44,050 nucleotides of DNA from contig JAFGJY010000034.1 of assembly GCA_016928875.1 (NCBI GenBank), positions 1-44,050 on the forward strand, written 5' to 3'. The notes under the pieces were generated by a model. It ran no database searches, was not told where the DNA came from, and worked only from the letters and a program-made list of their open reading frames with translations. Positions 3,541 through 43,400 of this stretch are shown here, one piece after another. Source of the DNA: Candidatus Omnitrophota bacterium. Its GTDB lineage: Bacteria > Omnitrophota > Omnitrophia > JAHJGZ01 > JAFGJY01. The first letter of the stretch is position 1. Every line of letters starts with the position of its first letter. The translations under genes and the position numbers were made by a program.

Positions 3541-3587
3541 ACGCGATACATATATGTATATTTTATGGTTTATTGTATGTATGTGTG

Positions 3588-3657: not shown

Positions 3658-3678
3658 TACGGTATTAATCGCATTTTT

Positions 3679-3702: not shown

Positions 3703-3707
3703 AAACT

Positions 3708-4410
3708 TTACGCTGCGACCGCGAACAATTCGTTGAACTTCTTCGCCTTAGCAAGCTGCTTCTTGAAGACCTCAACCAGGCGTTTTGACATTTCACCGCT
3801 CATCGTAAGTTTCGTTTTTTCAACCCGACGATCGGCGACTCCCTCGGCGACCATCTTAACGACACGCATACCTTGCACATCAAGCGTCGGCGCCTGCTCG
3901 AATCGATACACCATCATATCGTCGTCTTTGGCGCTGCTGAAGAACTCAACATCCTCGGCTTCAGGTAACGCCGCATTATTATCTATCCCGGCATAATACA
4001 TCCCCTCACGCGCCAGACTATCGTCCTTATCCATTAACACATTGACCGCATCCGCCTCGATCAAGGCCGTTATATCAAGCATGAATGAACGATTTGATGC
4101 GATCTCGATCGAACTGAAAAATCTCTCTAAAGCCTCATCCGATATATCAGGCTGTCCGTTCTTCATAATGGCTTCAAGTATACGTCTTGAAGTTTCTTCG
4201 TTATACTTACCTGAGAAAATAGTGACCTTGGCTGTAGCGCTCGACCATTTCATCGTATTTCCGACAGCCGCAACAAAGTCCTTAAGCCCTTGCACCTTTT
4301 TATCAAGCAACACGTTATTATTGGTCGCAGGAATAACGATCGTATCCTTACCGATCGTCACGCCGTGATCAGGCAGCAGCGTATCAAGGTTCACTATGAA
4401 ATTAAACTGC
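3708..4410 (-). other. C-terminal alpha/beta domain, possibly a degenerate HAD-like fold
   Basis: After a P/T/V-rich linker: FNFIVNLDTLL (cf. hhhDxDGTL with the nucleophile Asp replaced by Asn), a helix, VTIFSGK (cf. motif II), then RRILEAI. Confidence 0.35.
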
Positions 4411-19400: not shown

Positions 19401-22400
19401 CTTTTTATCTTGTGCTGCGGTTGCGCCCTCTAAAGCATTTAAGATATCATCGATCCGAGCGATCATCTGTGCATTAGCGCCATCTACTCCAATATAATTC
19501 CGCATATCTTCTAACGATGCTTTCAGCATGTTCTTGTCGGCATTGTAAACCGATGAAAGGATATCCAGTATCAATCTGACGTCATTCGCCGTATTATTGG
19601 CATCTAATTCCTTCATCTTTTGTACGAGACGATATATACGCGTCTCAGGCAGCTCGTCAACCGTTATCCCTGCAAAATTGACCCTGAAGATTGTAGCCAT
19701 GGCATCAAGAGATTGGCTCGCGAGGTATTTTTTCATCTCGAGCGAAAGCGAATCGAAGTCGATACCTTCCCCGATCACATCCGTCATGAGACGATCACGG
19801 TATTTCATTGACTCTTCGATCACCTTGTCAAAACGGCTCATATCCAAGACATACTCTTTCACATATTTACCCTCAACGATATTGCCCTGCGCATCGATCA
19901 TTTGCAGTATTTCGGCTTTGTACGTAATAACCCCCTGACTGAAAAGCTGTCCAACGATACCGGAAAGCACGCCGTCCTGTTCGACCTTTTTACGGATAAG
20001 CTTGTTGCGAGCATCGATCGACGGGACATCGTCGCTATAGGCCGGTATAATGATCTCTTCGATAAGCCCTAACCGTTCAAATGAACGCTTTACATGCTGC
20101 AGCACGCTTGTTTCTTGTTGTAATTCGCCGGGCAATGTTGTTGCAACATCGCGTCGGCCTAAATAATACATTAAACGCCCACGCTCATCAGAGTTAACAC
20201 GGGTAACCTCATCGTCATTGCGGCTGCTGTGCAGCGAAACATATCCAACGCGGATCAGATCGGTCAGTATCTGTAATTCGCCGATCAAAGAAGCCATTTG
20301 TTGTTCGTTCTGTGCGCTAATAACTACATCTTCTCTTCGTTCATAGCGGTCCGTCGTCGTGTTCAAAATATAATATTTGTTAAATAAAGGATGCTTAAGA
20401 GCCTCATCGCCCATTATCCTTTGCCGTTTCTTCGATATGACCTGCGGCAAAACATACATGTCCCGGCCCACGCGATATTCACGCTCATTCTCAACCTGAT
20501 AGACCAAAATGTAGCTCACGGCATCTTCCACGGAATACCCCTGGGTCATGATCAGGCTCACGATAGTACTGACCGTATACGGCTTGATCTCATTCGGTGT
20601 TGTCGTGCGGGTAGCATTACGCGTGATATTATCGAAGAATTGCGTTATATTAAGGCCGTCCCTCATCTGCACATCATAATAATAACTGTCCATCCGCGCA
20701 CGTATATCGCCAAAAATACCCAACTCTTCAAGCTCAGCCCTTCTTGACCAAACCTCTCGTAGGACTTTTACTTTGTAGTCATTCTGCAATCTGAGCCACA
20801 TCTCGGAAAAAGCTTGCGGCGTTTCCTCACGGCCGTCCCTTTTCGTCAACTCAGCAAGCGTGTTCATCAACCTGACCTCGCGGTCATGGATCTTGTCCTT
20901 AGAGCGATTTTCACGATACCGGCCGTTCAACTCTGCAAGCAGGGTCTCGTTATCCATCTTTCTGTTCTCTTCACTGATGCGCCATTGTTCTGATAATGTC
21001 AGATAATAATCGGCAGCATACCGCACAGTGTTATCACGTATCGCTCCCTCTATAAAACTCTGTATATCCGGAGAACGCACATCTTGGCCACGTTCCTTGG
21101 CAACGGTGATCAACAATCTTTCTGTAGCTTTCTGAAAACCGCTCAAGTCTTCTGTTATTTCCTGGAGTTTCTGCTCCCATTCATCGGGTTGATAATGTGC
21201 CTCAACGGCTTTTCGGAACATCTGGTTGATCAATATAAATATTTCTTCAGCAGGTAATTCTTCCGTTTCATTGCGATACTTCGATGCAATAGCACGAAAG
21301 TCTTCAGCTAAAACACCCAGGTTCTTATCCAAGTGAGAAATGGTCACCTTGCGCAGATCTCGTTCGAATCTCCATTTTTTCATACCGCCCGCGCCCCATG
21401 TCTTATCAAATTGTTCCGGCAGAAAATACGCGATCGCCATGGGATCAAGGTCTTTACCAACCAATATCAAGTATTGCGTTAAGACATAGGTGCGGCGCTC
21501 AAAATAATCCTTAAGCCACGCCGATAGCTCTTCACGTTCCAAGTACCCCAGATCATAGACCTGTTCGTACAATTTCTCTACCAGCCCCGAAACTTGCCCT
21601 TCGGTCAGTTTAAATATCCTGCGGTCAAAGAACGCCTGCTGTTCATTAAACTTCTCTTGCACGTCTTTATTCTTAGCGATCATCTCGAGCTGCGCATCTT
21701 CGAGCGCCAACATTTCCTCTTTAAGGCGGATCATGTCCTCATAATATTGGCGGGTACCGGCCCTGAACGCTTCTTCGTAGCCTTCCTCGCCTTCTTCGAT
21801 ATCCAAAGTGTTCTTGATCCGCTGTATCGACTTTTCGTTCGTTTGTGAACGCGTCAAAAGCTCTCCGATACGGCCCGTATTATTGTAATTGAACAAGGCA
21901 TCGGTAATGATCATGTGCAAAAGCATGGTGTGGGAATCACTATCAGCCTCGTCAAACACTTTACCCGTCACCAATTCATAATATTCCGTATATTCGCCCT
22001 GATAGACATAGCGCGCGATATCATATGCAGAAGGAGCGATCTTTTCATTGTCTTTTGAGATCGTGGTATTTGCGGTCGTAAGTTCAACGATGATAGTCTC
22101 GACATATTTGTTTATAATGGCCTTATTGATCACATCCCGTGCATCTTGCGTAATGAGCCGTTTCTCGATGAGCATAACAACGAGATCATATCCTGTATCC
22201 TCAGTCCCTGTCCGCTGAATGTAACGTACCAGGTCGCCATCAAATATCTTGGATGCCAATTCACCGCACATTGCATCCGTTACAGGCTCTGCCTTAGCGA
22301 CCCCATAGGCATCACATAGATAATTTATAATAACAGCATCTATTACCTTATATTCGTTCTCCAACTGATTGATGACCGTCTCGGTGCGTTTATACCTGTT

Positions 22401-25400
22401 CATCGCGGCATCGAACCACATTGAATATTCGAAATCACGCTCTAGGTAGCGATCGACATAATTCACAAGATCATCCGGTGTGAAATGGCGCGATAATTCA
22501 TCTTCTTTGGTGAACGGACTATGCTCACCGTAAAATGTCGCGTCTCCCGTTGAAAGCCGCTTGCGGTTCTTGTCGATCTCGACAAAGCGCATCTCTTTGA
22601 GATTCTCATCTGAAGTCTTCTTGTAGAACTTTCTCATCTGCCTAAAGTCAGCATTAAATATTCTTTTAAATAAACATTTCATCTCGTACAATATCCGCCC
22701 CAAGAACGTTCTCGGCTGTGTCGGCCTTGCCTCTTCATATGCATTATTACGTTCTTTAACATACTCGATCATCTGTCTGCGCAAAACAAGGTCATCGGCA
22801 ATCTTCTTTTCCTGATATTGCTCGATCCGGTTCACAATGCTGAAATACTGGTTGACCTTAGCAAACGCATTGGTAACCATAAGGTCGCCAACAGACTTAC
22901 TTACGTCGCCGCTTTTGTAATTATCCTGTAAATAAATTCGGTCAAAGGTATCGAGCGTTAACTCGTTATACAACGCTCTCAGCTCTTTTACTACGCTACG
23001 ATGTTCGTCCGTTTCCCCCAAACTAAAGACAGCCGTGTCAAGCTTGAGCTCTTCTACATTCTGCCCGTTTTCTTCGGGTAATGCCTCAATGGCTGATATC
23101 AGCTGATTGATGAAGTACTTTATCTGGAAATACTGTCCCATGAGCCGCTGATAGTGTTCATCATCAGGCGTACCAAGACGGTCTGCGGTTTTGATCGTAT
23201 TAAGGTTCCTGAGGAACGTAAACTGTAAATCGTTGAATTGCTCAATTATGTTCCGAATGTTACGCCAATACGGCGAAATGGTCGTTACTTCTTTGACAAC
23301 GTCTGCTATCTCGCCTTCAACCGTTATATCCTTCATGGCCCGTTCAAGGTGGGTAACATTTGTTTGCATGACGGAATTCACATATATCACCGCGAGCAAG
23401 CTCACTTTATACGCATCCTCATCGTTTTGGGTAATCACATCGAACTCGGCCAAAACGTCCTGTCGCCGTTCATGAGCAGCGACAACGTTTTGTTTAGCCT
23501 CATCATTACTAAAGACAAGCAACAAGAGCTCCTTGGCCGTATCAAGATCAAGCGCCCTGAGAGCCTTATAAAGCGCTTCTTTATGCTCATTACTGACCAC
23601 AACACCTGCCGCAAGAATCTCTTCGGCTGTCTCTAATAAGTTCAACAGATCACTTGCTAAGTCCTCGCGCGGCGTTTCGATCGTCAATCCTTCTTTGTGC
23701 TCAAGGTAACGTGCCACTTCGATCTTTTTCACCTCGGAAAGTCCGATATTCTTTGCGATCGTTTCGATCGACATAAGGACGCGGCCTTTCTCGTCTACGG
23801 CATTAACACCCTTTAAATAATCGTCCTCGGACGTGATCACATAGCGCCCTTCCGGGTTCTTCTCCGCGTCATAGATCTGACGCCGGTATATGCTGATGGT
23901 GGCAGGCTCAAGAGACCTAAAATGTTTGGTAAAATAATGCCGTATATACGCTTCCTGCTCTAACGCAAGTTTGATATCGTCATAATTCCGGATGCCTTCT
24001 TTCCACAACCGGCGCAGGTCGTTCTGGACAACGATCGAACGATAGAACGCGGCAAATTCATCGGTCTTCACCTTCTCGCGCAGATACCTATCGAACATTT
24101 CTTGTGTTTTGTTCCCTTCCTCCGACACCGCATCAAGTGTCCATCCATTGATGAATGTGATCGCAGCATCTCTCTCGGCATCCGTAACGAACAATGTTAT
24201 ATTTCTGATCAATATTTCTTTATACTTAGCGAGCGTTTCATCATCTATCATAGGTTCGGATGTATCGCTTGTTTGCTCGCCCATAGCTGCCGTGAAATAT
24301 CCGTCTATATTCCGCGCGAACGTGCGATAGCCACCGTCTTCTTTCACACGGTTGACATTATTCTCGCCGGCCGGCTGCCAGTCATTGACGAAGGCAACCA
24401 GCGATTCATCCCACATACGGGCATCCTTGATATTCTGCAGCATTGATTGCTTTAAGGCCTCGAGATAATAAAGGTCCTTTTCACCCTCGTATTGCCAGCC
24501 ATACGGCTTAAACGTCATATAGCGCTCATTACCGATAACGCCTTGATTGACAAGTTCTACATCGATGCGTAAATATGAATCAAGCCATGAGGATACCTGT
24601 TGTTCTGACAACCGCATCTGTTCTGCATAGTTAGGCCCTGGGTTGAGATTACCGTTAATCATCATGTCTTCAAGGAAGAGCGTTAAATAGGATTGCGCAA
24701 CACCGCGTACATACCATGAACGGTCACGTTGTGAAACGGCAAAAAGATCCTGGCGTTCCTGCGGGCTAAGTTCTTCACCGCTAAAATTAGCGATGACGCG
24801 GTTCTTTAGGAAGTTATTGCGATCGGTGATCGCACTCAATTCACGGTCCGTGGTAGTAATGAGCCCTCGTTTATCAAGTTCATCGATCATGAACTGTAAT
24901 AAGTGAGCAAAGGCTTGTGAAGAAATATAATACCGATCCAATCCCACGTTCTGGAAGACCTTGGCAAGCGACATACTTTGTGCGCCGAACTGCTCGGTCA
25001 ACCTACTTGCTCCACGAGCGATCTTGAACTCTTCTATAGACCCCGTACCGCCGCGCGCGATATAATCTGCATATGCACGGCTGATCTCGTCTTCGTTATC
25101 CAATTCCTCTGACTCTGAAGAAGCCCCGCTAAAATACGGCGCTTTCTCAACAGCACTCTTGTAGTTATTGATCGTGTTGCCTATCGCATTCTTGACCCTC
25201 GAATCTAATTCCTGGCTCTTTATGCTCCGTAATTTGATCGTCGGTTTCTGGATCGTCGTATCCTGCGGCGTTACAGGCTGCTGGTCCTGATCTTCATCCT
25301 GCATGATCACGACAGGTTGTGTTTCATAGGCGGTTATGGTCCCCTGCATTTCCGGGTAGATATACTCATCAAATGCCGCAGCATACGCCGCTTCGTCCGC

Positions 25401-28400
25401 ATATACCCCGCCCACATAATTATCCAGGCTTGCAAGCAGCGGCCCACCCGGGTTAGCCTGTCTAAATGCGATCAGATCACGACGCATCCGGTCCCTATCA
25501 TATACAATATCGAGCCTATCGTTGATCGCCAATTCCCTAAACCACCGCTTAATAATGTATTCCCGATCGATCGGCGTCAGGCCGTAATTTTCCAATTGCA
25601 TCCGGTCAACAACAGATTCAAAGGCAAAGACGAGTCGATCATCGTCATCCATGATCTTAAAGGGCACATGACCTGTCGTCGATGCCTGTACCTGTTCTGT
25701 TGAAAACTCCAGATGCGTGATGATGATCTTGCCCTCTGATCTTTTGGCTGTCTTCTGGTCACTGAGAATATCGATCTGATCTATAATGCCTAAAAGTTTC
25801 ATCTCATTGAGAGGTATCTGGATCATATCGGCACCACGCGTGATCGTGACCTCATACACAGGCAGATCTTTTCGCTTGAATTGAACAATAAAGCCATCAA
25901 CGGTCGTTTGAGCCCAATCGATCCCGATCTTAACACTCTTATACCCCGAGAGGTTCGTCTTAACGATTTTTCCCCAGAATCCACTCTTAATGTCCCCTAC
26001 CATACCTGCCAGGTCAAGCTCAAGGCGTGTCTGATCAGCCGATAATGTGGCATTATTCCGCATGATATTAGCCGTGTTGGTATAGTCTGTCGTAAAAGCA
26101 CCGTATTTAATGAATTCTAATCTATCTACCTGATCCTCATCCTGAACGCTTACCGACGGGATCGTCCTGCGGGACTTCGCTGTCTCGACCCTTGATAGTT
26201 CCATTTTTCTGATATTCGCCGTTGAGAAATCCCTCTGCAAATAATGGTCCATCCACTGTATCATGTTCATCCCGACATTAAAGGTAGTGATCGACCTATT
26301 ACCTCTAAAGGCAGTCTCATTCATCAAACTTTCCATATATCCCGATAACGGTGTATTCCCCGTAAGATCTTGTTTGTAGTTATAAAGGGCTATCATCTCA
26401 ATGATGGAATCAAATGAATAGACAACTTGGTTCCATGGCTGCGAGGAAGATGTGTCGTTGTGCATACCGGTAAGATTGTTCATTACCGCCTGCGGCATGA
26501 AACGCATGAGGAGCGCTGACGCATAGGGGGCTTCTTTCTGCTCGCCGCCCTGAAGGGGCACATACCCCGGAAGACCGAGGGTGGGTTCGCCGTATTCATC
26601 GTATACGACCTGACCTGCGCTATTGACATAGCCTGTCGGCGCCCGTCCCCAATACGCCCGATTTTCTCGTGTCTTTAGATCAAGGCTAGCTTCACCGTAA
26701 TTCATCGCACTCTTTACGAAATACGGCGAATATTGCATCAAGCCCAAGAGCTCATACGGCAACATATGTTCGAACGATGTGCCGCCTTTTGACCCCAGGA
26801 TCGGAATGATCGAACCATCAGCCTTCTCAAAATGAAGCACGTTCTTTTGCGCGCGCACGAATGCGTCATACGGTACACCGTCAAAAAGAACACCGAGCAT
26901 AATGGCTGTCAAAGCTTCGGAATTGAGGTTCCCATAATTGTCTCGTGACCATTCGCCGTTCTTATACGCTAAATTAAGCAACTGTGAACCATCCGCACCG
27001 CGTGCGAAGAAAAATCGCATGTCGATCGACTGCGCAAGCGCGAAACAACGGTCCGCGAGTGCATTATTACCAAGAGTTTCGCGCGCATATTGGCCTGCGA
27101 TCAATAAACCGGCTTTTAAATTACCGCAATCAACGGCCGATATTTCTCCATCACCCGATGGCACCCAAGCACCTGCCGCATTGACGCTGTAGAAACGATA
27201 CGGCATACCACTTACGCCCTTCGGCATTCTTTCAAGGGCTGAGACCTGTCTCTCTAATGTTGCCGAAACATCCTTCCCCTGCATAATGGTCATAAGCAAA
27301 CTCATGCCGAAGTTAGAAATGGTCGAACGCTTTTCGGCAGGTGTCTGAACCGTTCCGTTCCTGATCAAAGCAAAATCATAATACAATCCGCTCGGTTCAT
27401 GGCGCAACGCGTTCAACTGCTGCTCTATCTTGCCTGACTGTTCATCGATGAACCTGATCTGCTCGGCCTTCTCGATATCTGTCACTTCATACGTCGGTTT
27501 CACTACGTTCTGTGGGACCGGAGCTTCGAAGACCTCATCATATTCACCGCGCGGTGCGAACAACGCTTGATACTGCCGATCACGATAGATCTCTTCATTA
27601 ACGGCGTACAATATCGTCATAGGCAAGCTGCCCTCAAAGATCCACGACGGATCATTCGTATACACATCCTCCATCGTCTTTGTGACCGCCGCTAGCAGAT
27701 CCTCCGGGCTCAGTCGCGCTATATTCTTAATGTCGAGAGCCATAGCTAGTTCCCGGTCCGTGACCCCACGTCTATGGAGAGAATAAAGCTCGACCTCAAC
27801 CATAGTTTTCACCCAATATTTGAACAATGGATCGTCAATAATGACGCCGACTGAACGAAGGCCGGCACTGATCGCGGCCTTTTTCTGCTCCGGTGTCATT
27901 CCCTCGATATCAGGACGTAACTGATCGACGATCTCGCCCAATATCCCAATTTGTTCGCCCAACATCTCCGTACTAAAGGCTTTCATCGCGACCAGAAGTG
28001 CGGATGAAACACCTTCAGAATACCAGTTCGGTATGAACTCCATGTCCTTATCGAGCATTTCTTCGATCTCGTTTTCACTGATGATGTGGCCGCCCTTTCT
28101 GAGCTGGCGCTTGATCTCCGCAGTCGCTATCTTCTTCTTGAGTATAAATACCTCTGACGTTTTATCAGGCTGAAAAGTCTGTGCCGTCTTTATCTGCTCA
28201 TTAATGATCGCGAGCCGATTAAGCGCGTATTGCGTCCCGTTCACCACCCCGAGGCCGAAGGCATAGTCGTCATTCTGTAAATAATCATAAACCAGCGGCA
28301 GTAAACCGAAAGCCTCCGACTGCCGGTACCAATTATGCATTACTGAACCGTTAAGGTCATCATTGAGGGCCGTTTTGATATCATCTTCAGTGAAATCAGG

Positions 28401-31400
28401 CCCTTCTTTGAACCCTTGTAATCCCAGCATGCGCTTCTTTGCATCGACCATTCGATCGAACGTAAAGCGATACCGCGGCGTTTCAGTGTTTATCGGGATC
28501 AGCATTCTCGGCTCGCCATTGACGTCCACATTCTGGCTCGTGACCATCATGATCGCGTTAATGATCTCAAGCTGCTGGGTGATATCCCCTTCAAGGCGCG
28601 CGTTGATAATGCCGTTCGAACACGCAAAATAAAGTGCTGAAAGCATGACCCCGCCGTCTTCGAAACGTTTCTTGATCTCTTCGGTCTTTGCATACTCTTC
28701 GCTCTCTTCAATGATCCCTTTCTTGACGAATTTCCGTGCGATCGAACGGGAAGCATAATCAATATCGAACGTAAAGAGCGGACTATTAACATCCACGATA
28801 TTCCGCACCAAACCGGTCTCCTTGTCAACATCGACGGTCTCGACATAGGTATCAAAGAACGTATCAATATCGTCCTTCGCGGTAATATCTCCCATAGCGA
28901 GAGAGAGCGCAAAACTGAAATAGACCCCTTCAAGCATGAACTCGTTCTTCTTGTTCTCATCCTGATCGGTGTGTAATGATGCGACCTTTTGCCCGAATGT
29001 CATGCGTGTATTCGTTACCGGATCGAAATAAAGATCTTTATCAGCATCAACAATGATCCGGCGTTTGATAAGATCAGCGAGCATGAATTCGACCGCATCG
29101 CCGCGCGATCCTTCTTTGTACCTATCTGACGGCACGAGGAAATAATTGATCGTATCGGTGCCCTTGTACTGGCCGATCGCCTCCTTGACGTTCTTGTAGG
29201 CACTAAAGAACGGTATCAGGTCCGGCATGACTTGCAGTATCCCTTGCTCGAGCAGCGAGGCAGTGATCGCAAACCGCACGCCGCTCTTTGTCCATTCCAT
29301 GGTATTAAAGAGCGCAACGATATTCGGATCCGTTTCAGCAACATCATGTCCCTTCTTCCTTAGTTCACTCACCTTTTCCTTGATCGCCATCTCACGGCTG
29401 AACCCAAAAAGCTTTGCATCTCGGTCCGGCAGGAAGAACGGCACATAGTTCTTGAGCTGGGTGTAAATATTGAAGAAGCCATCATGATCAGTGATATCTT
29501 CTTTAAGAAGCGCCTTGGTCATCGCGAAGATCTGCGCATCGATGTTCCATGAGACGTTCCTTCCATACAGATTGAGCATCGCATCGTATTCATATTTATA
29601 CTCACCGGTCTTGACCTGGTCGAGCGTCAGATAGACGCCACGCTTGCGGTATTTGATTATGACCTTCTCAGCCGCCGCAAGTTCAACATCGAACCTGAAT
29701 TGTTGGCTCGTCGTATCGACATCAAAGGCGTTCTTGTACCGCGTATTAATGGTCTTATAGAGTTCGATAAAATCGCCGACCTGCGATTCGGTGATCGCAT
29801 CGGCCTGTATCGCTTCCTGAATGGCTTTGGCAAAGCTGAATGCCTTGGCCCTTGTGTACCACGCACTGTCACCGTTCATATACAGGTCTTGATAATACCT
29901 GAACTCGGCCCGGCGTTCGATCTGAGCATCGGTCAAATAGATACCGCGTCGCGCATAGATCTGCCAGGTACGTTCACGTGCCGCGTTCCGCGCGTCATAA
30001 TAGAACATATTGTCTTTTACCACGGCGCCGAAAATATCTCCGTCCCTTAAGACCATCGAATAGATCCGCAAGAATTGGGCAACCGCGGTCCGTTTCAATA
30101 TTATCTTCTCGGCCTTCGTCTTGCCGAGTGCATCCCAATAGGCGTCCATCTCAGCCGTAAAGGCCTCGAGTTCTTCGCCAAGCGACTGCGCGAATGACGC
30201 TTCGACACCGCGCTTAAAGTAATCTTCATACGCTTTCCAGTATAATTCCATCTTTTTCTCGTCATTAATACCGAACGCCTTGTCGAGTTGAGCATAGAAC
30301 GTTTTCCATGCGGCTTCCGTCTTGGCGGCATCCGTCTTGGCGGTCCGTGCTGCTGTTTTATACCATCCCCAGATCAATTCATTTGACACGTTCTTGACCA
30401 GAGAATCGCGGTTCTGGATGGTGAGCGGTTGTTGTCGTACGGCACGCTGATCACGCTCGGACATGGCCATCGGTGCTTCGCTTAAACGATCTATGTCCTG
30501 GTTGAAGAGATATTTCTGGGTCGCGAGAAAATCCTTGAACCCTTCGAAGAACACCTCATCCTTTAAGAACAGATCGGGATAATCGGCCGCGAGGTTGACG
30601 TTCATCTCATCAAGGATGCCGCGGGATTCCATAGCACGTTGCAAATTATCGAACGCGAATGACAAGTCGTCGCCGACAGAGGTTGTGCTATTGACCGGAT
30701 GATACTTCTTGAATATCACCGAATAGCCGCCGGACTTCACGACGATATCATCGGCATAGGCCGAAATAACGCCCATGCGATACAGTTCCCGGTCATGAAG
30801 GTTCTTGAAATATTCGATATCGCGCGTATCGGTAACCCATGTCGGCTGGGTGATCTTATATTTCTGATCGCCGACTGCGGACGTCGACAAGAAACCCGGT
30901 TTGCTGAAGCGGCTCATATCATCGATATATTGCCGTAACGAGAGGTTATATGCATCGCCGCTCGCTTTAAATTCAGACTCTAGTCCCGGCAATAGGCCTT
31001 TTTTATAGCGCTGGTGTATGTCGATCATGATATCAAGTTTAAGACTCGCTTCTTCAACGGTATTGCAGCCGCGGGCGACTTCACGCGCCAGATATTCGAT
31101 CTGCGCGTCGTGCTTGACGTTCATGTCCGTTTGCAGGGTAAGCTCGAGCAATTTCTCGAGCTTATCGATCAACATCAGTTTCACGACGACCATTTGAATG
31201 TACTGATCGACGTCACCATAGAGTTTATTCGGATCCCCGCCTTTTCCGTCACCGATCATACGCGCGATCGCCATGATCTCATTAAAATCACGCGGATTAT
31301 CCATTTCGTAATTATTGTTGGCTATATCAATGAAATCACGGTTCTCTCTGAGCTCGCCCGCGATCTCGACCGTATTCAGAAAATCTTCAACAGTAGCATA

Positions 31401-34400
31401 CGGAGCCCCAATGGCCGCGATGTCCTTGGCATAGGCCAGGGCTTCTCCGAATACATCCGGCTCCATGATCAGCGTTATTAATTCATCAAAAATATCAATA
31501 TCATCAAAAATGCCCGGATATTTACTAAAAATAATGTTCTGACGATACCGGTCATCTTTGATGAGATCGATCGCGATCTTGAACCTACGTATATATTCAT
31601 ACACGTCGATCTTGTCGTATGTCTTCCATTTCTGTAATTCCTGGATCCACAACGTCACGGTATCCGGCCCTCTGGTCGTTACGAACTGCGCCATGCCGAG
31701 CAGGACCGCAAGCATTTTTGAATCAGCGCGCGCTTCTTCTTTCGACGCACGGAGATCATTGCTTACTTTTTGGATAAAATCAAACGGCGATGTATTGCCG
31801 TCAAAAACCTCGTCTATAAGATCCTCCCCCAGCAGCGGTAACAGATAATCTTTAATGACAACTAAGGCGTCAATATAATCGTCAATATACCACTGCGGTA
31901 TTTCAATGATCTCGGAATCCAAGCCATTGACATAATCAAGCGGATCCTTATAAACGAACAAAAGCCCCGCATCCTTTGTATCCAAAACCATATAATACGC
32001 GGCACCGAAGAGCAGGCCTGATATCATAAAATCCGTGTACAGTTCGGCTCCCACCTTCATTTCGGTGCTCAACATCCTCTCCCTGAAGCCCTGCAAACCG
32101 TTAACCGGATTACCATACACGGCCAAGAACCGCGGGCTGTCAAGAAGCGCGAGCACCACTTTCACCTGCCGCATATATTCGTTAAAAGAGAATATACGTG
32201 CCGGATCGTTCTCGTAATCATATAAGACTATGTCGCCCGTGGATGAATCAATGAACGGTTTCTTGATGAAATGCACCCCATATCGGCCGCTCACCTCGAT
32301 CGGATCTCCCGGTATCTCGACGATCTCGGCAACGCTGAAATAGATACCCTGGACGACCGCATTACGCACTATTTTCTCGTCATTGGCACGATCATCATAG
32401 GGAAGCTTGGTCGGGAAATGATCATATAAACGCGTAAAATCGTTATCTGTCTGGCCTGGCTGAACTCGTTTAAGTTCCAATACAACACGCACCCGGCGCA
32501 CGTATTCGTCGATCTGTATCGGCTGTATCCACGTCTCGCGGATAAGCGCCCCGGTCTGCGAGCTGTACAGTCTCAGCGGGATCGCGCCGCTTACCTCATG
32601 GGCAATCCCTGGATTGACCCGTTCTATATCGCCCTGCATCAATTCCACGATGGCGGCAGCACCAAAATATGCGCCGATGCGATACTGAATATCGTATTGT
32701 CGTATCCTATACTCACGCAGCGGGTCTGCCGCATCCGGATAGCGCGCGTTAGCAGCTTCCAGCATTTCCTGCGTTGTCGGGAATGTCCCGAACAGTTCCG
32801 CGAAAGCGCTGTAGCGCGGATTATCCCGCAGTTCAAGGATGACCTCAAGACGGCGGTTATATTCTTCATAGGTAATCGCATCCATGAATGATTTCGTGTG
32901 CGTGCTCGGGCCGGTATAATCACGCAGTTCGATCGGACGGCCTAATTGGTCTATCTCGGTCTGTGTTTCGTACACGGTCGCGGCTGCGGCAAAGTAACGG
33001 CCGCTCTCGACCGCTATCTTGCGCCGCGCGTCAAAGCTCCCCCTGTTCTCAAACGTGAGTGGCTCAGGGAATTCACCAAAAAGCTTTATAAAATTATCAT
33101 TTGTTCTCAGTTTATTGACGATCGCTACGCGCCGCATATATTCATCGAACTGTATCGGCTCCTGCCAGGTATTGTATTCAACGATAATGTTGCCATTGTC
33201 ATCGTAGGTCCGTAATGGAACCGTTTCCTGACCGCTTATGGCCTGGATATCGCCTTTGTTAAGCTCAACGATGCCTGCTACCCCGAAATATGCGCCGATA
33301 CGTACTTGCCGATCGAACCGTTCACGTTCGATCTGATCCTGAGAGACATCTTCACCCGGCATCTGTATCATCTCTTGAACGGTCGGGAACGTTCCAAAGA
33401 GATCTATAAACTCGTCTGATGATTGCCCATCATAACCCTTGATCAACGCGCATACGACCTTGAGTTGACGCTCGTATTCCTGAAGCAATATCGGCTCGAT
33501 CCAGGTCACGTAATCAACAGCTCCGGTCTCCCAATTGAAGGTCGTAAGCTTGATAGCTGTCTTTGCATCATTCGCGCGTTCACTATTAGTCCGCATGATA
33601 TCACCACGTTGCAATTCAACCATGCTTGCAATAGCAAAGTATCCGCTTATGATCGTATTACGCGCATAGAGGTCCTCATCGCTTATATCGTTAGTAAGAG
33701 TATATTTTCTATATTCACCAAAAAGTTCTGTAAAATCGTTTTTCACGCTTTCTTTGAGCGGTAATAAACTTTTAATAACCGCCATACGGCGGATATATTC
33801 GGTGATATTGACCGGTAAATAATAATTGGTGTTCTTGATAACTGCCCCACCGTCAACTGCCTGTTGACCATTAATGCTCTTGTATTTCTTATACTCTCTG
33901 AACCTCACCGGTTGATCAGGATCAAGTTTAAGCGCGGTATACGAATCGTCGTATACTAATGCAGCAACAGAGAAATAGCTCGCCACAATGATCTGACGCA
34001 GTCTTTCATTGTCAAAATCGAGAATGCTGTATTTATCGACGTTACCGTACAATTCAAGAAACGTCTCATCCTTAAGCAGTTTATCGATGATATCGAGACG
34101 GCGCTTGTATTCTTCTATTTCAGTTGGCAGGAAGCGGCTCACTTCATTTAAGAAGGCCGGTGTCTGGCCAAGCACAGGATTATCAGCTGCCCTATATTTC
34201 TTATATTCAGCGAACCGCACAACTGTATCAGCATTGACATTCCCAACTCCCTGTTTATATACCAACGCTGCGGTCGACATATAGGCCGCGATGATGACCT
34301 GGCGCGCTTTCTGGTCTTGTTCGTTAAGCGCATCTGCCGCATACTTATCAAGATCACCATACAACCGTTTAAAGGTCGCGTTCGTGATCAGCTCATCGAC

Positions 34401-37400
34401 AATGCCAAGCCGGCGTTTGAACTCAGTGAGGTTAACCGGTAAGAACCAGTTCACTTCATCAATGACCCGCGGCGTATTATCCTTCGTCAAGTCCCCATCA
34501 TCCTTTATCGTGTATTTCTTGAACTTCACAAATTCGATCGGTTCCTTGCCAAAATCAGGATGGGTCTTTTCATCATAGACAAGCGCGGCGGTTGAGAGAT
34601 ATGCCGCAACAACAATACCACGTTTCTTGATCAATTCATCCCATAGCGATGGGTCCTGCTTAAGGATATCGTCGATGTTCGTGAGAGTACCGTAGAGTTT
34701 CGTAAAGATCGTGCTGATGTTGCTATCGTTCATAAGATTATCGACGATAGAAAGACGGCGTTTGAACTCACTGAGTTCAGTCGGCAGATAGTAATTCACT
34801 TCTTCGAGCACTTTCGGCGTATTGGCAAGCGTCAACTCACCGTTCTTGGCAATAGTGTATTTCTTATACTGGGCAAAGCGTATCTCTTTATACTTCCACT
34901 CAGCATCACTGCTGACATCCTTATCATAGATCAGCGCCGCTGCCGAGAAATAGGACGCGATAATGACCTGGCGCGCTTTTTGGACCTTCTCGTCGGTCGA
35001 ATTGATCGCATATTTATCAAGATCGCCATACAGCGTCTTGAACGCCGGTTCTGTCATGAGTTCTTTAATAATAGCCAGCTGGCGTTTGTATTCCTTGAAA
35101 CCGGTGCGTAAGAACCAATTGACCTCTTCCAGTACTTCAGGATAGTCGGTGATCGGGTTTTCGGCCGTGCCCGTATATTTCGTATATTTGACGATACGGA
35201 TCGGCTCATCGCCGCCGGTCGGATCGGCAGTCTCATCATAGATCAGGTTTGCTGTAGCAAAATATCCGGCAAGCACAATGCTGCGCTCATCCAAGAGCGC
35301 TTCCCATTCAGAGCGCGGACGACTGAAGATATCGCTCAGGCTCCTGAGTGTTCCATAAAGGGCCTGGAAGGTCGCGGAAACATTGGGATCATTAAGGATG
35401 TTGTTGAACACCGTTATCTGACGCATGTAATCCTGGAGCTCGGTCGCCATGAAGCGATTGACCTCGATCAGTTTCTCGCCCTGATCGACTGCCGGTGCGG
35501 CCGGATCATCGCTCGTATAATTCAGATATTCCTTAAAGATCACCGGCTTGTCTATGTCAAAGCCCGCAACGTTACTTTCATACACCAGAGCCGCTACCGC
35601 GAAATAAGATGCAACGACAACCTGACGGGCCGCTTCTTTGGCTTTATCTCCAAGAGGATAATCAGAAAGCTTACCGTAGATCGCCGTGAAATCATCGTTC
35701 GCTATCAGCTGGCCGATAACATTGAGCTGGCGAGTATATTCGGTCAGGCCGGTCGGCACATAACGATTTACGGACTTAAGGGACTTGCCCTGGTCAACGG
35801 CCGCCGCATTCGGATCATTGCTTTCATATTTGAAATATTCGTAGAACACCACAGGATTATCCAATGACAACAACTTCGCTGTGTAGGTACTGTCAGAGAC
35901 AAGGGCCGCAGCCGCGAAATAGCCGGCAACGACAGCCTGACGTGCTTCCTTGGTCTCGGCATTCCCCAGCGCATAATCATTGAGGTTCCCGTAGATCTTA
36001 AGGAATGTCTCATTCTTAATGAGCTTGCCGATCATGTCCAAACGGCGTTTATACTCTTTCAGCTCCGTCCCCTGATAGCGGCTCACGTTCTTCAAGACCG
36101 GCTCATCGACGACTTCGGCTGTTGGGAAATATTCCTTGAAAACGACCGGTTCTGCAGCGTCGAACCGTGTATCGCCGTCTGCATAAATAAGTGCTACTGC
36201 CGTCATATACCCGGCGACCGCATCACTGCGAGCGTCCCCTGTGAGGGTTGCTATATCGCCGTACAATTGTTTGAAGATCGGCGCGACAGTCTCGTCATTA
36301 AGGATATTGACGAGAACCTCAAGACGGCGTTCGTACTCAGACAGCTTGACGCCGAGGAAATAATTGACCTTGACGATCACGGCTTCATCATTGCGCTCCT
36401 CGAATTCAATGAACGGGATCGGCTTGTCCGTCACTTCATTATCCTCGAAAACGATCGCGGCAACGCCGAAATACGTTCCGACCGCCTCGCTCACCGCGCG
36501 CTTGGCCTCAGCATTATTGCGGTCTTCATACGACACCTGTTCCGGAAAGGCGCCGAAGATAGCAACGAAATTCTCGTTCGCCTTTAATTTATTGGCGATC
36601 TTCACCTGGCGGATATATTCGCTCAAAAGTATGGGAACCTGCCAGGTCGTGGAAATGATCTCGCCGGCCTCATTATATTCGCGCAGCGCCACGACATCCT
36701 TCCCCGTCGTTTCCTTAATATCACCTTTACTCATCTCGATCATCCCAGCGACCCCGAAATAAAGGCCGATCCGCTGCTGTATCTCAAAACGTGCAATCGC
36801 CCCTTCTTCGCCCGGCATCGCTTCCGCAGCCCTTATCTCCTCTATCGTCGGGAAGGTCGCATTGAAATCGCCGACCGTGAAGAGTTCCGCGAACTTTTCT
36901 TCGTTCTTCAGCGCTATGACGACATTGACCTGGCGGATATATTCATCGAGCGTTATCCCCTCAACGTATGTTGTCGTGTATTCCGTCGCACTCGTATAAT
37001 TCTTAAGCGCGATCGCGCCTTTTATCTCCGCCTGGGTCTTAAAAACGATACCTGCCACGCCAAAATAGATACCCACCTGTATCGCGTCATCCGGGTTAAA
37101 CGTATCATCCAAACCGTACAATGTCTTGAAGGAGGCGTATTTCTGATTATTAACAAGTTCCGTCACGATCGCGACCTGACGGACATATTCCGTAAGGCTC
37201 AGCTGCTCCATCCACGATTCTTTAACGAGATTCCCGTTCTCATCGAATTGCATAAGATGAACGACATCGGCCGTGGCACCTTCCACACTGTCATCATACA
37301 GCATCGCCGCAACGCCGAAATACCGTCCTGTGGTCGTCGGATTATCAGGATCAAATCCGGCGCCGAGTTGATACAACGCCCTGAACTGATCGTATTGTTT

Positions 37401-40400
37401 GTTTGACAGATCCGACAACTTGCTCACTATATTTACTTGGTCTTCAAAATCATCAAGTTCTATCTGCATCATCCAATTCGTCTTAACAAGATTGCCCGAT
37501 GGATCGAATTCCTTCAGATTGACCTTGCGCGGTTCTGCCTGAACTGTTTTATCGTAAAGGATACCGGCAACGCCGAAATAACGTCCCACTTTTATTGGAT
37601 CATCAGGCTTAAAGCCGGTGCCGAGGTCATACAAGTCGCGGAAGGGAGCAAAGCGATCATCGTTCACCAATTTCGTGACAATGGCAACTTGGGCCTTGAA
37701 CGAACTGAACGCGATCTGTTCGAGCCATGTATCTTTTATCGGATTTCCATTATCATCGAATTTTATAAGATGTACCATCTTGGGCGTCGCACCGGCAACA
37801 CTGTCATCGTACAGCAGCGCAGCGACACCAAAGTAACGGCCGACCTGTACCGCATTATCCGGATCATATTCTTCAGGTAATTCGTATAACTGCCTGAATG
37901 GTTTAAAGTCGGGATCTCTAGCCAGACGCACCACCACATTCGCCTGATTTGCGAAATCATTCAGTTCGACCTGCATCATCCAAAATCTGCTTGTAACGTT
38001 CGTCGGCGAATCATAGGCCCTCAATTCTATCGGTTCTGTCGGCGCTGACTGAACGGTCCTGTCATAAAGGATCCCGGCAACACCAAAGTAACGGCCAACG
38101 CTTATAGGATTGGTTACAACAAATTCTCCTATAAGGCTGCGGTAACCATCAAATCTCCGATCATTGATGAGGACTTGCACGATGTGAGACTGGCGTGCAT
38201 ATTCACTCAATGCGATCGCCGGATAAAATTTACTCGTAGAACTCGTCTCGGACGTATAGGCCTTCAGCTCGACCGCCTCGGTTGGCAAGCTCCCGTCCTG
38301 ATAAACAAGGGCCGCGGCACCAAAATACGAACCAACCACATCCTGATCAGCCGCATTCCACGCACCAAAGAGATTGGCATTGCGCAGATCAGCGAACCGC
38401 GCCTCACGCGCAAAGGCGCGCACGATCGCAAGCCGGCGTTGATATTCGGCGAGCGATATCCTTTCATAATAATTCCCTTTTTCTGTCCTTAATACGCCGG
38501 TCCCGATAAAATCAACGGCACCGAAATAGCGACCGATACTCTCGGCATCACCAACAGTAAATTCACCAAATAAATTTATAAAATTCGGGTCATTCTTCAG
38601 TTCATACACCGTAGCGCATTGAGCGAGATAATCCTCAAGCGGTATATTATGCTCTTGGATATATCCGGCTGCTCCAAAATAGACGCCAACGGTCGTTGCA
38701 TTGTTCGGGTTCCATCCGCCATAAACCGCGGCAAAACGGCCGTTCGGGAATTTGGTCGTATCTGGGTTGTTCACATCGTCAATAAGATCGCGCACCATAC
38801 CGCATTGATCGAGGTATTGCGCTGCCGTCATCCCGTGCGACTGAATATATCCGGCAGACCCGAAATAGACGCCTACCATATTCTGATCGTTCGCATTCCA
38901 AGCTCCGAAGAGCGAGGCAAAACGGCCCTGAGGGAACCGATCAGTGTCAGGATTGCCCTCATCTTCAATAAGTTCAAGCACGATACCGCATTGATCGAGG
39001 TATTGCGAAGCTGTCATCCCGTGCGACTGAATATACCCGGCAGCGCCGAAATAAAGCCCAACCACAGCAGGGTCATTCGCATTCCAGGGCTTTTCAAACA
39101 ATGCCACAAAGCGGCCGTCCGAGCTCAATTGTTGAACGATGGCGCACTGCTGGAGGTATTGATTGACGTATTCGTCAACTGGTATATTATTTGTCGCGGC
39201 AGTTTTCTGGATATTCCCCGCGGCACCGAAATAAACGCCGATCATCGTCGTGTTGTTCTGGTCCCATACTCCAAAAAGGGTAGAAAAACGGCCGGCTGGA
39301 TCTGATCTCAATTTCTGAACGATATCGCACTGCTCCAAATATGCCGGTGCCGAGACGCCATGTGCCATATTGTAACTGGCAGTCCCGAAATAGATGCCGA
39401 TCCTCGTTTGATTGTTTCTGTCCCACGTCCCAAAGAGAGTAGAAAATCGATTTTGCTGGTCCGCTGCTAAAGTGTGTACATATGCGCATTGTGCAAGGTA
39501 TGTTGATGGCGATATATTATGCGACTGAATATACCCGGCAGCGCCGAAATACTGGCCTACACTAGCGGTATTTGTACTACTCCATACGCCATAGAGATAT
39601 TGAAAATCAAGGTTACTTCTAAAATAATTCTGAACCCAGTCGGCTTGCTCAAGGTAATTATTGACATTCGTCAGATAATTGCCCGGTAATCCGCTCAAAT
39701 AATTGACGAGATTGAGAACAGTCGTCTGATGCTGAGCAGGCCAAGTGCTGAACGGTACTCCTATGTAATTCTGCATGCCAAACAACGTCATATAATTCAC
39801 ATCATTGATCAATAACACAAAGCCCTCATAGATCTCGTCAAAGCTCAAAGCACTGGTAGTGATCTCATCGCTCACGGCTGTCGCGCTGGCTGCAAGTTCG
39901 GTCTCAGCCGCGGCAGTACTCGTTGCCGTTGCCGCTGCCGGTACGGCCGTCGCTGCCTTTGTGGTCGGAGAAGCTGTGGCTGATTTAGCGGTCAACGTCG
40001 GTGCTGTCATTAATAAAGGACTCGTGCTGGTATATGCTGCCGTTGATTTCAGACTGCCGCCCGAAACCGCGGGTGCTGTACTCGTCAGGTTGCCGCGCCT
40101 GATCAGCACCTTCATAAGCTCGTTCGTCGTCTCTTCATCCTTATCGACGTTCGTCTTGAGCTTCTGGAATGCCATCAGGTTGATGAACAACAGTTCACCG
40201 GTCAGCTGGTTTTGTTCAGCCATTGAGCTGAATAACGCGCTCACGCGGTTTCTGTCGATCAGTTCTCCATCTTTAACAACGCTCCTTGTTATTGCATGAA
40301 GGGTGTCATTGACCCCCTTCATGCCGATGGCGCCGCGACCGATCGATGCATTGTAGTTCTCCGGGAATATCTCTCTCAAAATATCATTACAAACACGGAC

Positions 40401-43400
40401 ATTTTTAACATAATTCTCATACGTGCCGCCCCCTTGATAGAGACGTTTGGTGATGAAGGTATGCATGATACTACGATAGTATGGATTATTAACTGCCATA
40501 TCGTCAGATGAAAAACCATCAAAGATATTATTTTTGATCAAGTCGTCAGCGACCTGGATCGCGGCTTCGTAATACTTACTATCCGCGTTCTTTGCCAAGG
40601 CATAGCACGTTTCCGCCCACAGGTCATCAAGGTCCTCGGCTACCGTCATATCCAGACCTTCCGTGCGGCCGTATAACGCCTCGACCGACGGTTTGATCTC
40701 TGCCATGCGCGCGATGAATCTTGCGGCACTGAACGATATCTTGGTAGTGCCGGCTATCCAGCGTTCGGTCATCTCTTTCAGTAAGGCTTCCTGGTCCTCA
40801 AGCGTGAGCCCGGAGAGGAGATCTGCTGTAGCGAGCGCATCCTTCATTTCCCGTAAATAGGTAATGTAGGTATCATCAGTGACCGTCATACCGTTCACCG
40901 TAAACCCTTCGCCCAGGGCGATCTGTACAGCCAAAGCTTTTGTATTGACCGCGCCGCTGACGATCGGTTTGCTCTTTGTCGGAGCAATATCCTTGATATC
41001 ATTATGTATCTTAGCGAGTTTCTTTATGAAAGTACGGTAATTATCCCCGTTGTAAGTAGCAGTTGTATGAATGGCGCGCGAGGCGTATTTAAAGAGGGTG
41101 TTGATCGCTTGAGGATCATCAAGCAGGCCGGTAGCAGGAATGATCTCGAGCGCTATGAGATCATCCTTAAGCGACTTCATGGCCGTAAGAATACGTAATT
41201 GCTGTGTTTTATCCTGGACCGAGAGGCGTGTAGCAATATCAAGCATGGTCCTGATAAACCGCTCTTTATTCTCGGCTGATATCGTGATACCGAGATCATT
41301 AAGGACGCTGGCCGCATTCCGCACGTCCTCTTCCTGCACGCCATATGCCGCGACCTGGAATACCGGCGCTTCCGTGTTAGTGGCATTGCGCATCGAGAAG
41401 TCAATGCCTTTTCCGTCAAATACCTTATCAAGCACTATTTTTGCCTGCGCCATGTGTCTGATGAATTCAACCATTTCCTCCGGCTTGTAGCCCGCGTAGC
41501 TCGCAATGAACGAAAAATCTTTGCGGCCATTGTTCACGGCCACTCCTTGTATCGTCCTTAATTCGGCTTTCAGCGACGGATAGTCGGCGGCAAAGCTGAC
41601 CAATGATGTCGCCACAAGCGCACTTCCCTTCTCGCGGAGTTGTGTTATCGTTAACGCCGCGATAAAGAGGAAATCGAAATCCTGTTCATTCGTCAGATCG
41701 AACCCGCTCGTATCGATCTCGCTTATGACCGCGAGAATGCTCGTCAATTGTTCGCGGCTTAAGCCGCCCGCATCCAGCAAGCCGGGCGTAATAAAACGGG
41801 CAAAGGCATCGATCGTCTGATAATCGTTCATCGTAGGTGTGTGGCCCAATATCTTGGTGAAATTCACGTCTCTTAGTAACGCGATCATGTTCTCAAAATG
41901 AGCGACCACATTCTCATCGCTCAGTTCTTCAACTTTGGCAGCCGCCCACGCGAAGTACACGTCACGGCTCGCGCTGTCCTTTAACGCGTCGATCATGCTC
42001 AAGGCTGTATCGCCTAATGCAACGCGAATGGTGTTCAGGTATGGATTGAACGTACGAACATACGTAATAAATTCCTCAATATCTTCGACATCGGCAAGTT
42101 CTTCAAGGATAGCGATCGTTTTGTTCTTGACCTGCACCAGTTCATCAGAGGTAAGCGCGCGGGCCTCATCATTCCGCATGAAACGCGCGACTTCCTGCGT
42201 GGTTCTGAGGACATCTTCTTCCGTCGCTTTTGTAATGCCTTTTTGTTTCAAAGCGCTCACGACCTCAGCTGCCCATGTCTGCCAGCGTTGCATGGTTATC
42301 GTATCCTTGCCGAACGGCTTTAAGAGATCAAGCGTCGTATTCTCGATATCCTCGATCGAGACTTTCATCGATACCATCTTGGTGATCAAGGCCTGCACTT
42401 CTTCCTTCTTGAACTCGCCGAAGGTGATCATGCTTTCCCAATCGAAGAGCAGCGACGAGTCTTCCTGCCGCGTCACATCGAGCTTGTATAGCGGATCTGA
42501 ACTTAATTTCGGAAGTTCATCCATAAGCCACAGCCGCGTTTCGATAATGCCTTTGACCTTCTCGGCACCGTCTTTCAGGCCGAATTGATACGCGTTAACG
42601 GCCCAATATATAAGCTGCAGTTTGTGCTCCGGATTCTGTAAGGACACCTTATCGACCCCCAGATACGCGCGCACATATTCCGCAACATCGGCCATCATGC
42701 GCATAATATCCTCGGCTTGTTTCAGCGTAAGCCGGCCCTCGCTCACGAGTGCGTTCCAGAACATCAGTTCTTTTTCTATATCAGGGATGGTCACCGCAGC
42801 CGCGGCACCCAGTAAATAATCCATCGCGCTCTGAAGCCCCTGATCGGCGATCTCGGTATCCGCAACATAAAGGTCAGCCGTAATATCTTCGGCGATCATC
42901 GTTACCAGCCGGTAATGCTGGCTCCGTTGATCAACTGTCCGGTTAACGCGTTCCGTGAAAGCCGTACTACCCGCGTTCGTCGTTACTTCAACGTTCTGGC
43001 GCGTGCCATTGACCGCTTGCTCCATATTGACATAATCACGATGAACACGTTCGATCTTGACCAGCAGGTCTGCAAGCTCTTTCTGCATCGTCTCCAGCTT
43101 CTTCAGGACCTTTTCGTTCTCGTCATTGATCCCGCCGAGTTCCTCCACTATGGAAGCGATCGCCTGCTGGGTCAACTTGATCTTATCACCGATGATCGTC
43201 ATCTGATATTCATACGCCGCAACGTACGCCGCAAATTCTTCGTCGGCAAGCTGCTCGAATTTCATTATCTTATTGAACACCTCGCCGCGGTATTTATTCC
43301 ATTCGATCAGCTCTTTGTGGATCTTATCGAGCGCATCTGACTCTATACCGGCCGTACCTGATATACCTATAAGAGAATTCGCAACGCCATTGACCGCATT

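Follow-up and report, generated by a model that had tools for sequence, protein, structure and literature searches.

Giant proteins of the bacterial phylum Omnitrophota are little understood. Two studies describe them as membrane-associated and partly without recognisable domains (10.1101/2023.11.21.568195; 10.64898/2026.06.07.730766). The second study counts 137 proteins without any domain match among 916 proteins of at least 10 kilo-amino acids (kAA) (10.64898/2026.06.07.730766). The first predicts a ~1,500-amino-acid (aa) hollow antiparallel beta-helix with external paired alpha-helices (West-Roberts et al., 10.1101/2023.11.21.568195). A second point of comparison is the alpha-solenoids, including TPR, Sel1-like, HEAT and ankyrin proteins. 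Here we analysed the whole contig JAFGJY010000034.1 of the Candidatus Omnitrophota bacterium assembly GCA_016928875.1 (44,050 bases, referred to as the window), which is part of a 1.73-Mb, 131-contig, 78%-complete metagenome-assembled genome of an uncultured bacterium from sediment. It is filled almost alone by one giant open reading frame (ORF) of 13,446 aa on the minus strand (3708..44048), with a stop codon at 3708-3710 and a 5' end that lies beyond the contig. The ORF contains an array of about 31 repeat units. Our analysis suggests that this array is probably a new, nearly orphan solenoid-type repeat family, amplified in blocks, and that it may play a structural role. It lies in the N-terminal ~8,800 residues, the soluble part of what appears to be a giant protein with many membrane passes.

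The repeat is directly visible on translating 31500-39662 of the minus strand, and all of it is inside the single minus-strand ORF. The whole array covers aa ~1403-4190 (31479..39842; all features of the giant ORF given below are on the minus strand) and was delimited by self-BLAST, anchor cuts and a unit profile. From aa 1498 to aa 4010, the chain contains 28-29 copies of a G.YFG.A-type anchor, and cutting at the anchor produced 29 units. A profile built from 28 units recovers all of the anchor-cut units and gives extra partial matches at aa 1460-1496 and 4137-4170. In self-BLAST of 200-aa chunks, E values go down to 1e-57, and the array matches only within aa ~1413-4017; chance does not come near such similarity. 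The first-pass annotation of the window, made from the letters alone, had proposed a repeat of about 30 units, and the anchor, the self-BLAST matches and the unit profile all bear it out.

Units 1-15 are 53, 53, 60, 62, 62, 51, 67, 79, 85, 85, 86, 85, 102, 96 and 88 aa long, and units 16-29 are 96, 105, 114, 104, 117, 106, 102, 112, 117, 98, 109, 109, 109 and ~75 aa long. Length is strongly correlated with unit index (Spearman rho 0.90, p 6e-11, n=28). The increase is stepwise by blocks and reaches a plateau after about unit 17. The annotation had described progressive growth, from 52-62 to ~85, ~106 and finally ~119 aa. Its three smaller lengths agree with ours, but the longest unit measures 117 aa; the rise with position stands, but it comes in steps and levels off.

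To locate the growth, the units were split by regular expression at the EY.RQ helix and the F..L[YF]G motif, unit 14 being read by eye. The segment after the YFG helix grows from 18 aa to 29, then to 43-47 and 51-63 aa. The segment before the YFG helix grows from 10 aa to 13, and then to 14-37 aa. The segment from helix B to F..L[YF]G is constant at 23-29 aa (34 in units 4-5) and has no trend along the array (rho -0.09). The two insert sites that the annotation had pointed out, after and before the YFG helix, account for the growth.

The units are arranged in blocks. One or two degenerate leading units (aa 1403-1497; 39558..39842) were recognised by eye, and the partial profile match at aa 1460-1496 in this region has an E value of 0.005. 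They are followed by block S, units 1-6 (38535..39557), which are 51-62 aa long and have three helices without a hairpin, as modelled for units 4-6. Units 7 and 8 (38097..38534) are transitional. Unit 7 is 67 aa long with a predicted 3+3-residue hairpin, and unit 8 is 79 aa long with a 7+7 hairpin. Block M, units 9-12 (37074..38096), consists of 85-86-aa units with a tight 7+7 beta-hairpin, which was modelled for units 9-11 and assigned to unit 12 by likeness; it contains a two-unit super-repeat. Units 13-14 (102 and 96 aa; 36480..37073) belong to an X/Y subtype, in which the insert that precedes the YFG helix is long. Block L, units 15-23 (88-117 aa; 33648..36479), carries a long-tipped hairpin and a helical insert fused to the YFG helix, as seen in the model of units 20-23, and also has a two-unit super-repeat. 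The X/Y subtype occurs again in units 24-27 (98-117 aa; 32349..33647). The array ends with units 28 and 29 and at least one degenerate trailing unit (aa 3901-4190; 31479..32348), to which the partial profile match at aa 4137-4170 belongs.

The 13,446-aa protein contains only 23 cysteines. Six of them are in block S, one in each short unit at the same position of helix B (Y-L-x-Q-C). In addition, five of these six units (aa 1498-1838, window 38535-39557) have a histidine at unit position 13. These residues could form a metal- or cofactor-binding ladder at the thin end of the array.

The structure of the repeat was predicted with AlphaFold2. Pseudo-alignments of non-overlapping multi-unit windows of the array were used as input, and their unit-on-unit register was checked. 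Overlapping windows, and a set with the whole of P0002, the relative described below, were discarded: MAFFT aligned identical overlaps or stretched rows in them. For units 20-23 (437 aa, 6 rows), the predicted local distance difference test score (pLDDT) was 84.5 and the predicted template modelling score (pTM) 0.84, and the five models ranged from 82 to 84.5 in pLDDT. In each of the four units, a long helix is followed by two strands separated by a loop of ~13-20 residues, then by the EY.RRL helix and finally by the short F..LYG helix. The insert preceding the YFG helix runs without interruption into that helix in these long units, so that a single helix spans the unit boundary (H103-125, H213-232 and H315-334). 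The best model of units 4-11 (577 aa, 4 rows) has a pLDDT of 80.8 and a pTM of 0.72. In it, units 4-6 consist of helices only, with no strand of three or more residues, unit 7 has a 3+3 hairpin, and units 8-11 have 7+7 hairpins with five-residue turns. Units 20-23 have a wider hairpin and a longer helix than the shorter units.

These models agree with several features that the first-pass annotation had read from the letters. It had proposed a beta-hairpin-like insert after the YFG helix, and its example VHLIKF-DDNGN-PIKDTW is modelled as strands MVHLIKF and PIKDTWLE around the turn DDNGN. The insert before the YFG helix is predicted to be helical, as proposed, and is fused with that helix in units 20-23. 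The helical core is predicted in both windows. The annotation had also envisaged units stacking into a solenoid, and the four- and eight-unit windows are predicted to fold as single confident bodies, as expected from stacking units. The tapered rod that it proposed would follow from what the individual units contain.

We searched for known families related to the repeat. No Pfam family matched at E ≤ 0.01 over all 13,446 aa, and none of the matches at E ≤ 5 reached its gathering score. NCBIfam gave nothing above cut-off in the giant ORF, and the sequences in the Protein Data Bank (PDB) included no match for either the unit profile or the whole giant protein. In the same type of scan, TPR models match other large ORFs of this genome with E values down to 7.5e-21, so the blank Pfam result is not due to a weak tool. 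The annotation could not match the unit to TPR, ankyrin, HEAT or leucine-rich repeats, and its view of an unrecognised repeat is consistent with these searches, in which the giant ORF matched no existing Pfam repeat. A single Pfam LRR_LRWD1 match (E 0.0061, under cut-off) is located in another part of the giant protein.

The predicted folds were compared with known structures. In Foldseek searches of the PDB, the best E values were 0.33 for the model of units 20-23 and 0.11 for that of units 4-11. VIA-align against 48,161 chains gave best Z scores of 4.6 and 4.2, respectively, and no chain reached Z 5. Single-domain matches may be overlooked in such searches when the model is longer than 400 residues, and these empty results do not show that the fold is new. 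The ESM Atlas contained no usable match for units 20-23. Literature searches on tandem repeats and solenoids with length change, insertions or beta-hairpins gave no such graded array among the matches listed, and a search for Omnitrophota solenoids found nothing relevant.

The repeat resembles alpha-solenoids in its tandem units of two or three short helices and their predicted stacking into an elongated body. Irregular units with loop insertions are also common in alpha-solenoids. Unlike them, the array matches no Pfam repeat model at E ≤ 0.01 and no solved helical repeat at Z 5; a beta-hairpin is present in most of its units, which become twice as long from one end to the other. Leucine-rich repeats and other alpha/beta solenoids likewise draw a strand and a helix from every unit, and the stack here could likewise have one face of strands and one of helices along its length. 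However, the unit has two antiparallel strands instead of one parallel strand, three helices and no LRR motif, and the strand element is missing from the first six units.

The repeat is extremely rare. Among 1,835,955,588 representative proteins, the unit profile matched four at E ≤ 0.001. Three of these are low-complexity or coiled sequences and were rejected as relatives. The fourth, P0002, is a true relative (E 3e-62). It is a 3,904-aa metagenome fragment, a singleton on one 30.5-kb contig. Residues 46-1370 of P0002 are collinear with aa 3496-4892 of the giant protein at 34.5% identity, a stretch that comprises the last units and ~800 residues beyond. The non-repeat region after the array (aa ~4191-4892; 29373..31478) thus lies within this alignment of ~35% identity. 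Outside the collinear stretch, the two proteins are not alike. P0002 begins inside the array and holds only the last six units.

Other searches for the repeat were empty within their scopes. Six-frame searches with the unit profile found it in none of 98 other genomes of the class and none of 400 genomes sampled across the phylum. The array region used as a 2,721-aa protein query matched none of 40 relatives' genomes, and no second copy of the repeat occurs elsewhere in the same genome. Pattern scans based on the alignment of the giant protein and P0002 gave 42 matches in genome contigs and 118 in metagenome contigs, none of which was confirmed. A homologue search among proteins of 4,763-5,000 aa, a range that giant homologues fall outside, found none, and a search with P0002 returned P0002 alone. 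As for the rest of P0002, its C-terminal end (residues ~3458-3904) has its own cluster of hydrophobic segments. The sequence around residue 3800 reads like the start of a GT2-type glycosyltransferase; it has no Pfam match and is not similar to the window protein.

Relationships among the units were analysed with a maximum-likelihood tree of 35 units, 29 from the giant protein and six from P0002, over 78 shared columns; the tree is unrooted, without an outgroup. The units form contiguous subtype blocks, not a ladder, and the subtype labels need 9 changes on the tree compared with a shuffled mean of 22.2. Clades correspond to the short units 1-6 (support 94/88), the four 85-aa units 9-12 (97/90*) and the long units 15-23 (95/85*). 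Units 8, 13, 14 and 24-27, together with two P0002 units, form a set that the tree leaves unresolved. Best-partner scores pair unit 9 with 11 and 10 with 12 in block M, 18 with 20 and 19 with 21 in block L, and 13 with 26 and 14 with 25 on either side of block L. Along the array, the insert types follow the order X Y, nine long units, X Y X Y, which indicates that the long-unit block (15-23) is nested inside another subtype (13-14 and 24-27).

Even between the most similar units, identity is only 50-66% in protein and 59-74% in DNA, and Tandem Repeats Finder detected no DNA repeat of the unit period. Judged by this divergence, the unit duplications are old. Three units have supported one-to-one orthologues in P0002: unit 24 pairs with h2 (97/86*), unit 28 with h5 (96/95*) and unit 29 with h6 (100/99*). 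Each pairs with a single P0002 unit, which indicates that the three were distinct before the giant protein and P0002, now ~35% identical, split. The annotation had supposed that the evolutionary history of the repeat is laid out in order along the array. This idea fits poorly with blocks in place of a ladder, a nested long block and one-to-one orthologues for three of the last six units.

We also compared segment conservation in four presumed orthologous unit pairs of the giant protein and P0002, two of which (unit 24 with h2 and unit 28 with h5) have starred support. Identical residues number 25 of 48 compared in the YFG helix, 41 of 103 in helices B and C, and 28 of 109 in the insert before the YFG helix. 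In the hairpin segment, 60 of 176 are identical (23 of 44 in unit 24 and h2). On these counts, the hairpins are conserved parts of the unit, about as well kept as the helices. They do not behave like the freely varying decoration that the annotation had in mind.

Taken together, we consider it probable that the array is a solenoid-type family of old, block-amplified units. In such a protein, each unit would have a constant three-helix core, formed by the YFG helix, the EY.RQ..IV..L helix and the short F..LYG helix. Consecutive units would most likely pack into one continuous, rigid stack. Four or five subtypes follow each other in contiguous blocks: bare three-helix units (1-6), a tiny hairpin (7), a 7+7 hairpin (8-12), and a longer-tipped hairpin with an extension of the YFG helix (13-28). 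The length gradient would have arisen by block-wise amplification of subtypes that were already differentiated, through unequal recombination in one- and two-unit steps. The result would be a thin N-terminal end and a body that becomes thicker towards the membrane-proximal end. The rise per unit in alpha-solenoids is usually ~1 nm, so the array may be a few tens of nm long. Its most likely role would be that of a stiff spacer or scaffold that presents a conserved hairpin face, not that of an enzyme.

Several observations weigh against this interpretation. The predictions were made from pseudo-alignments of paralogous windows with 6 and 4 rows and without a shuffled control, so their confidence may be inflated. 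Predictors tend to favour regular solenoids for repeated sequence. The model of units 4-11 is unstable, the mean pLDDT of its five models ranging from 64.6 to 80.8. Stacking, the taper and a continuous sheet are read from the unit content of models taken without coordinates. The units might fold as separate small domains strung along the chain, an arrangement found in many giant adhesins, and the confident models might be an artefact of repeated sequence. The shallow pseudo-alignments would allow this, and a study on repeated random sequences reportedly obtained confident predicted folds (10.64898/2025.12.04.691947). However, short units of 51-62 aa with two or three short helices and 10-aa connectors are too small and too tightly joined for separate domains, a continuous helix crosses the unit boundaries in the long units, and the high pTM of units 20-23 extends over four units. 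We consider this explanation very unlikely. The beta-helix tubule of West-Roberts et al. is the main competitor: units 8-29 would form such a tube, with the hairpins as its load-bearing wall and the helices as decoration. It comes from the same phylum-level host and the same class of giant membrane-associated proteins, and it too is known from AlphaFold2 only. It is also a very long array (~1,500 aa, compared with ~2,800 aa here) and shares two antiparallel strands and paired helices per unit (10.1101/2023.11.21.568195). Two strands per unit would take up about the same ~1 nm as one helix layer, which would make a continuous sheet geometrically plausible. In the tubule, however, the helices surround a beta-helix core, whereas here the helices are the invariant core and strands are added to it, a distinction that is drawn from the published description. 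Units 1-6 have no hairpin within the same array, and the modelled segment leading from units 4-6 into the hairpin units is predicted as one body. Moreover, the unit profile matches nothing in the 400 phylum genomes. A tubule of this type is a possible explanation, but we regard it as doubtful.

Further points against our interpretation concern history and function. Holding units 15-28 together (against 1-14) was not rejected by the approximately unbiased (AU) test (log-likelihood difference 18.1, p 0.082), a grouping that was named after the tree had been seen, and this p value leaves room for an ordered unit history. The length gradient is uncheckable in P0002, which has only the terminal six units. 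The array could record its own history in order, with units added successively, inserts inherited and enlarged, and position equal to age. The rise of length with position agrees with this, as do units 7 and 8, which are intermediate in length and hairpin size exactly at the boundary between the short and the 85-aa units; unit 7 also branches between the short units and the rest in the tree. However, length no longer increases from about unit 17, block L is nested between units of one other subtype, and duplications inside the blocks occurred in two-unit steps. In addition, P0002, though only 34.5% identical, contains supported one-to-one orthologues for three of the last six units. In a tree without an outgroup, gain of the hairpin and its loss at the N-terminal end appear to fit equally well. 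An ordered history is therefore unlikely in our view. Finally, with the N-terminus missing, the array may face either side of the membrane, and a rigid scaffold is its putative function. The repeat and its rarity, the sites of the inserts, the predicted secondary structure, the blocks and the orthology of the terminal units are direct results; the way the units stack, the taper, the membrane side and the function are inferred.

A more far-reaching possibility, which we think improbable, is that the array presents one solenoid fold as a natural growth series. In it, a bare three-helix stack with a ladder of one conserved Cys (and usually one His) per unit would pass seamlessly into a helix-plus-beta-ribbon stack with about twice the mass per unit. 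Such a tapered needle or funnel could be an appendage tens of nm long, with which a small Omnitrophota cell, perhaps a predator or an epibiont, would reach its partner or hold on to it. The hairpin ribbon would be the binding face, and the Cys/His residues would form a metal- or cofactor-binding tip. If true, it would represent a new fold class, a natural example of repeats acquiring decorations and a template for the design of tapered repeat proteins.

Solenoid repeats are well known as a kind. This family is new: no profile existed for it, it has no relative of solved structure, and the 1.84 billion representative proteins include a single sequence relative. The predicted unit is unmatched in the PDB. 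Within one chain, the core goes from lacking a hairpin through a stub and a full hairpin to an extended hairpin with an extra helix, and these four or five states follow each other in end-to-end blocks, which is rarely so clean. It is a useful natural case for how repeats gain insertions without breaking the stack, and for how repeat proteins of varying cross-section might be designed. Describing the array also provides an annotation for about a fifth of this 13,000-residue protein, in which no other domain is recognisable.

The rest of the giant protein contains two transmembrane-like clusters according to Kyte-Doolittle analysis. The first has about 13 hydrophobic segments at aa 8795-9461 (15666..17666), and the second about 9 segments at aa 10848-11499 (9552..11507). 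In aa 1-8700, the same analysis shows no transmembrane-like segment except one repeat helix at aa 2810. With at least 13,446 aa, about 22 hydrophobic segments and homologous giant ORFs in the phylum, the protein belongs with the giant membrane proteins of Omnitrophota. It resembles the giants without Pfam matches in the survey of the phylum in its length of more than 10,000 aa, its transmembrane segments, the lack of a domain match, and repeats that are ancient rather than recent DNA tandems (10.64898/2026.06.07.730766). The survey differs in classing repeats by Pfam copy number, and in its available text this unit is not described and the word 'solenoid' is absent. Archaeovorin- and Dockerin-type subtypes are defined by particular domains (West-Roberts 2023, 10.1101/2023.11.21.568195). 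None of these domains (SecA DEAD-like; glycosyl transferase/hydrolase, peptidase and NUDIX; dockerin/TSP3) was found in the 13,446 aa present, although the missing N-terminus may carry some of them. SecA_DEAD was found nowhere in the 78%-complete genome.

A membrane module (aa 9346-11403) connects the protein with other giants. Throughout its length it can be aligned collinearly with P0006 at 24-30% identity. P0006 is a hypothetical protein of 4,224 aa, under the NCBI name Candidatus Omnitrophica bacterium, that has neither repeat units nor a domain match. P0006 is encoded exactly on contig C45 of genome G023, from the same class as the window genome, which supports the assignment of the latter to Omnitrophota. 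In an RpoB search, the best match was an 'uncultured bacterium' at 74%, followed by mixed phyla at 45-65%, and this search by itself points to no single phylum. Of 400 other genomes sampled in the phylum, 17 contain open frames (1,006-13,898 aa) that match the module. Because the module is common to other giants and P0006 has no repeat units, the array represents a lineage-specific addition to a shared giant-protein chassis. Three of the four module-bearing ORFs that were fetched carry ordinary enzyme domains, namely cytidylate kinase, radical SAM/SPASM, PEP-utilising enzyme, phosphomannomutase, glucoamylase and HD domains; the fourth, P0006, carries none. These three giant ORFs (G070:C1, G245:C18 and G043:C4) combine cytoplasmic-type enzyme domains in one polypeptide. 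The conserved module thus links a protein without recognisable domains to giants of more familiar content.

Between the two membrane clusters is a conserved module of ~190 aa (aa 10504-10704; 11937..12539), with 15 columns invariant in all six aligned sequences; it is present in 17 of 400 other phylum genomes, within open frames as long as 13,898 aa. Its invariant residues in the six giant ORFs include QTD.E.E, GK, R.HD.WEA and GW.PGD. It has no Pfam or PDB match, and the ESM Atlas gave no usable match for the inter-membrane region. Its pattern of invariant residues looks like an unrecognised active site common to Omnitrophota giant proteins. One of the six members has a single weak match to Glyco_trans_2_3 (E 0.039), and a glycosyltransferase identity was not adopted.

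Other parts of the ORF and the contig were also inspected. An Ala/Thr/Ser-rich low-complexity linker, read from the sequence, adjoins the array upstream (aa ~1321-1398; 39855..40088). A second internal duplication is located downstream of the array at aa 4601-4893 (window 29370-30248), where self-BLAST chunks 4601 and 4701 match aa 4721-4893 and 4601-4804 with E ~1e-11. The giant gene is longer than 13,446 codons, since a Logan contig, from a separate assembly of the likely source run, continues 1,471 nucleotides (nt) past window position 44050. In searches for the missing 5' part within the genome, none of the other contigs overlapped the end exactly over 15-150 nt, and none contained anything similar to the giant ORF. 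The same genome has other very long ORFs that are cut by contig ends, on contigs C6 (2,661 aa, open at both ends, TPR-rich), C106 (3,105 aa, TPR-rich) and C100 (2,295 aa, with GH94 domains at its end, as in cyclic beta-1,2-glucan synthases). They were considered as the missing 5' part and are unrelated.

Among sequencing runs, the stretch is present in one DNA run only, the likely source, and no RNA run is listed as a holder. One of two metatranscriptomes from the same study contains a single clean 151-nt contig (39912-40062, in the linker) and two short loose-ended pieces, and the other contains nothing; the 151-nt match is no evidence on expression. On the downstream side of the giant gene, ~300 nt from its stop, is a 106-aa fragment of an IS200-type Y1 transposase (3084-3404, minus strand) that corresponds to positions 40-121 of the 121-position profile. 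Beyond it lies a calcineurin-like phosphoesterase ORF of 959 aa (1-2877, minus strand), which is truncated by the contig end.

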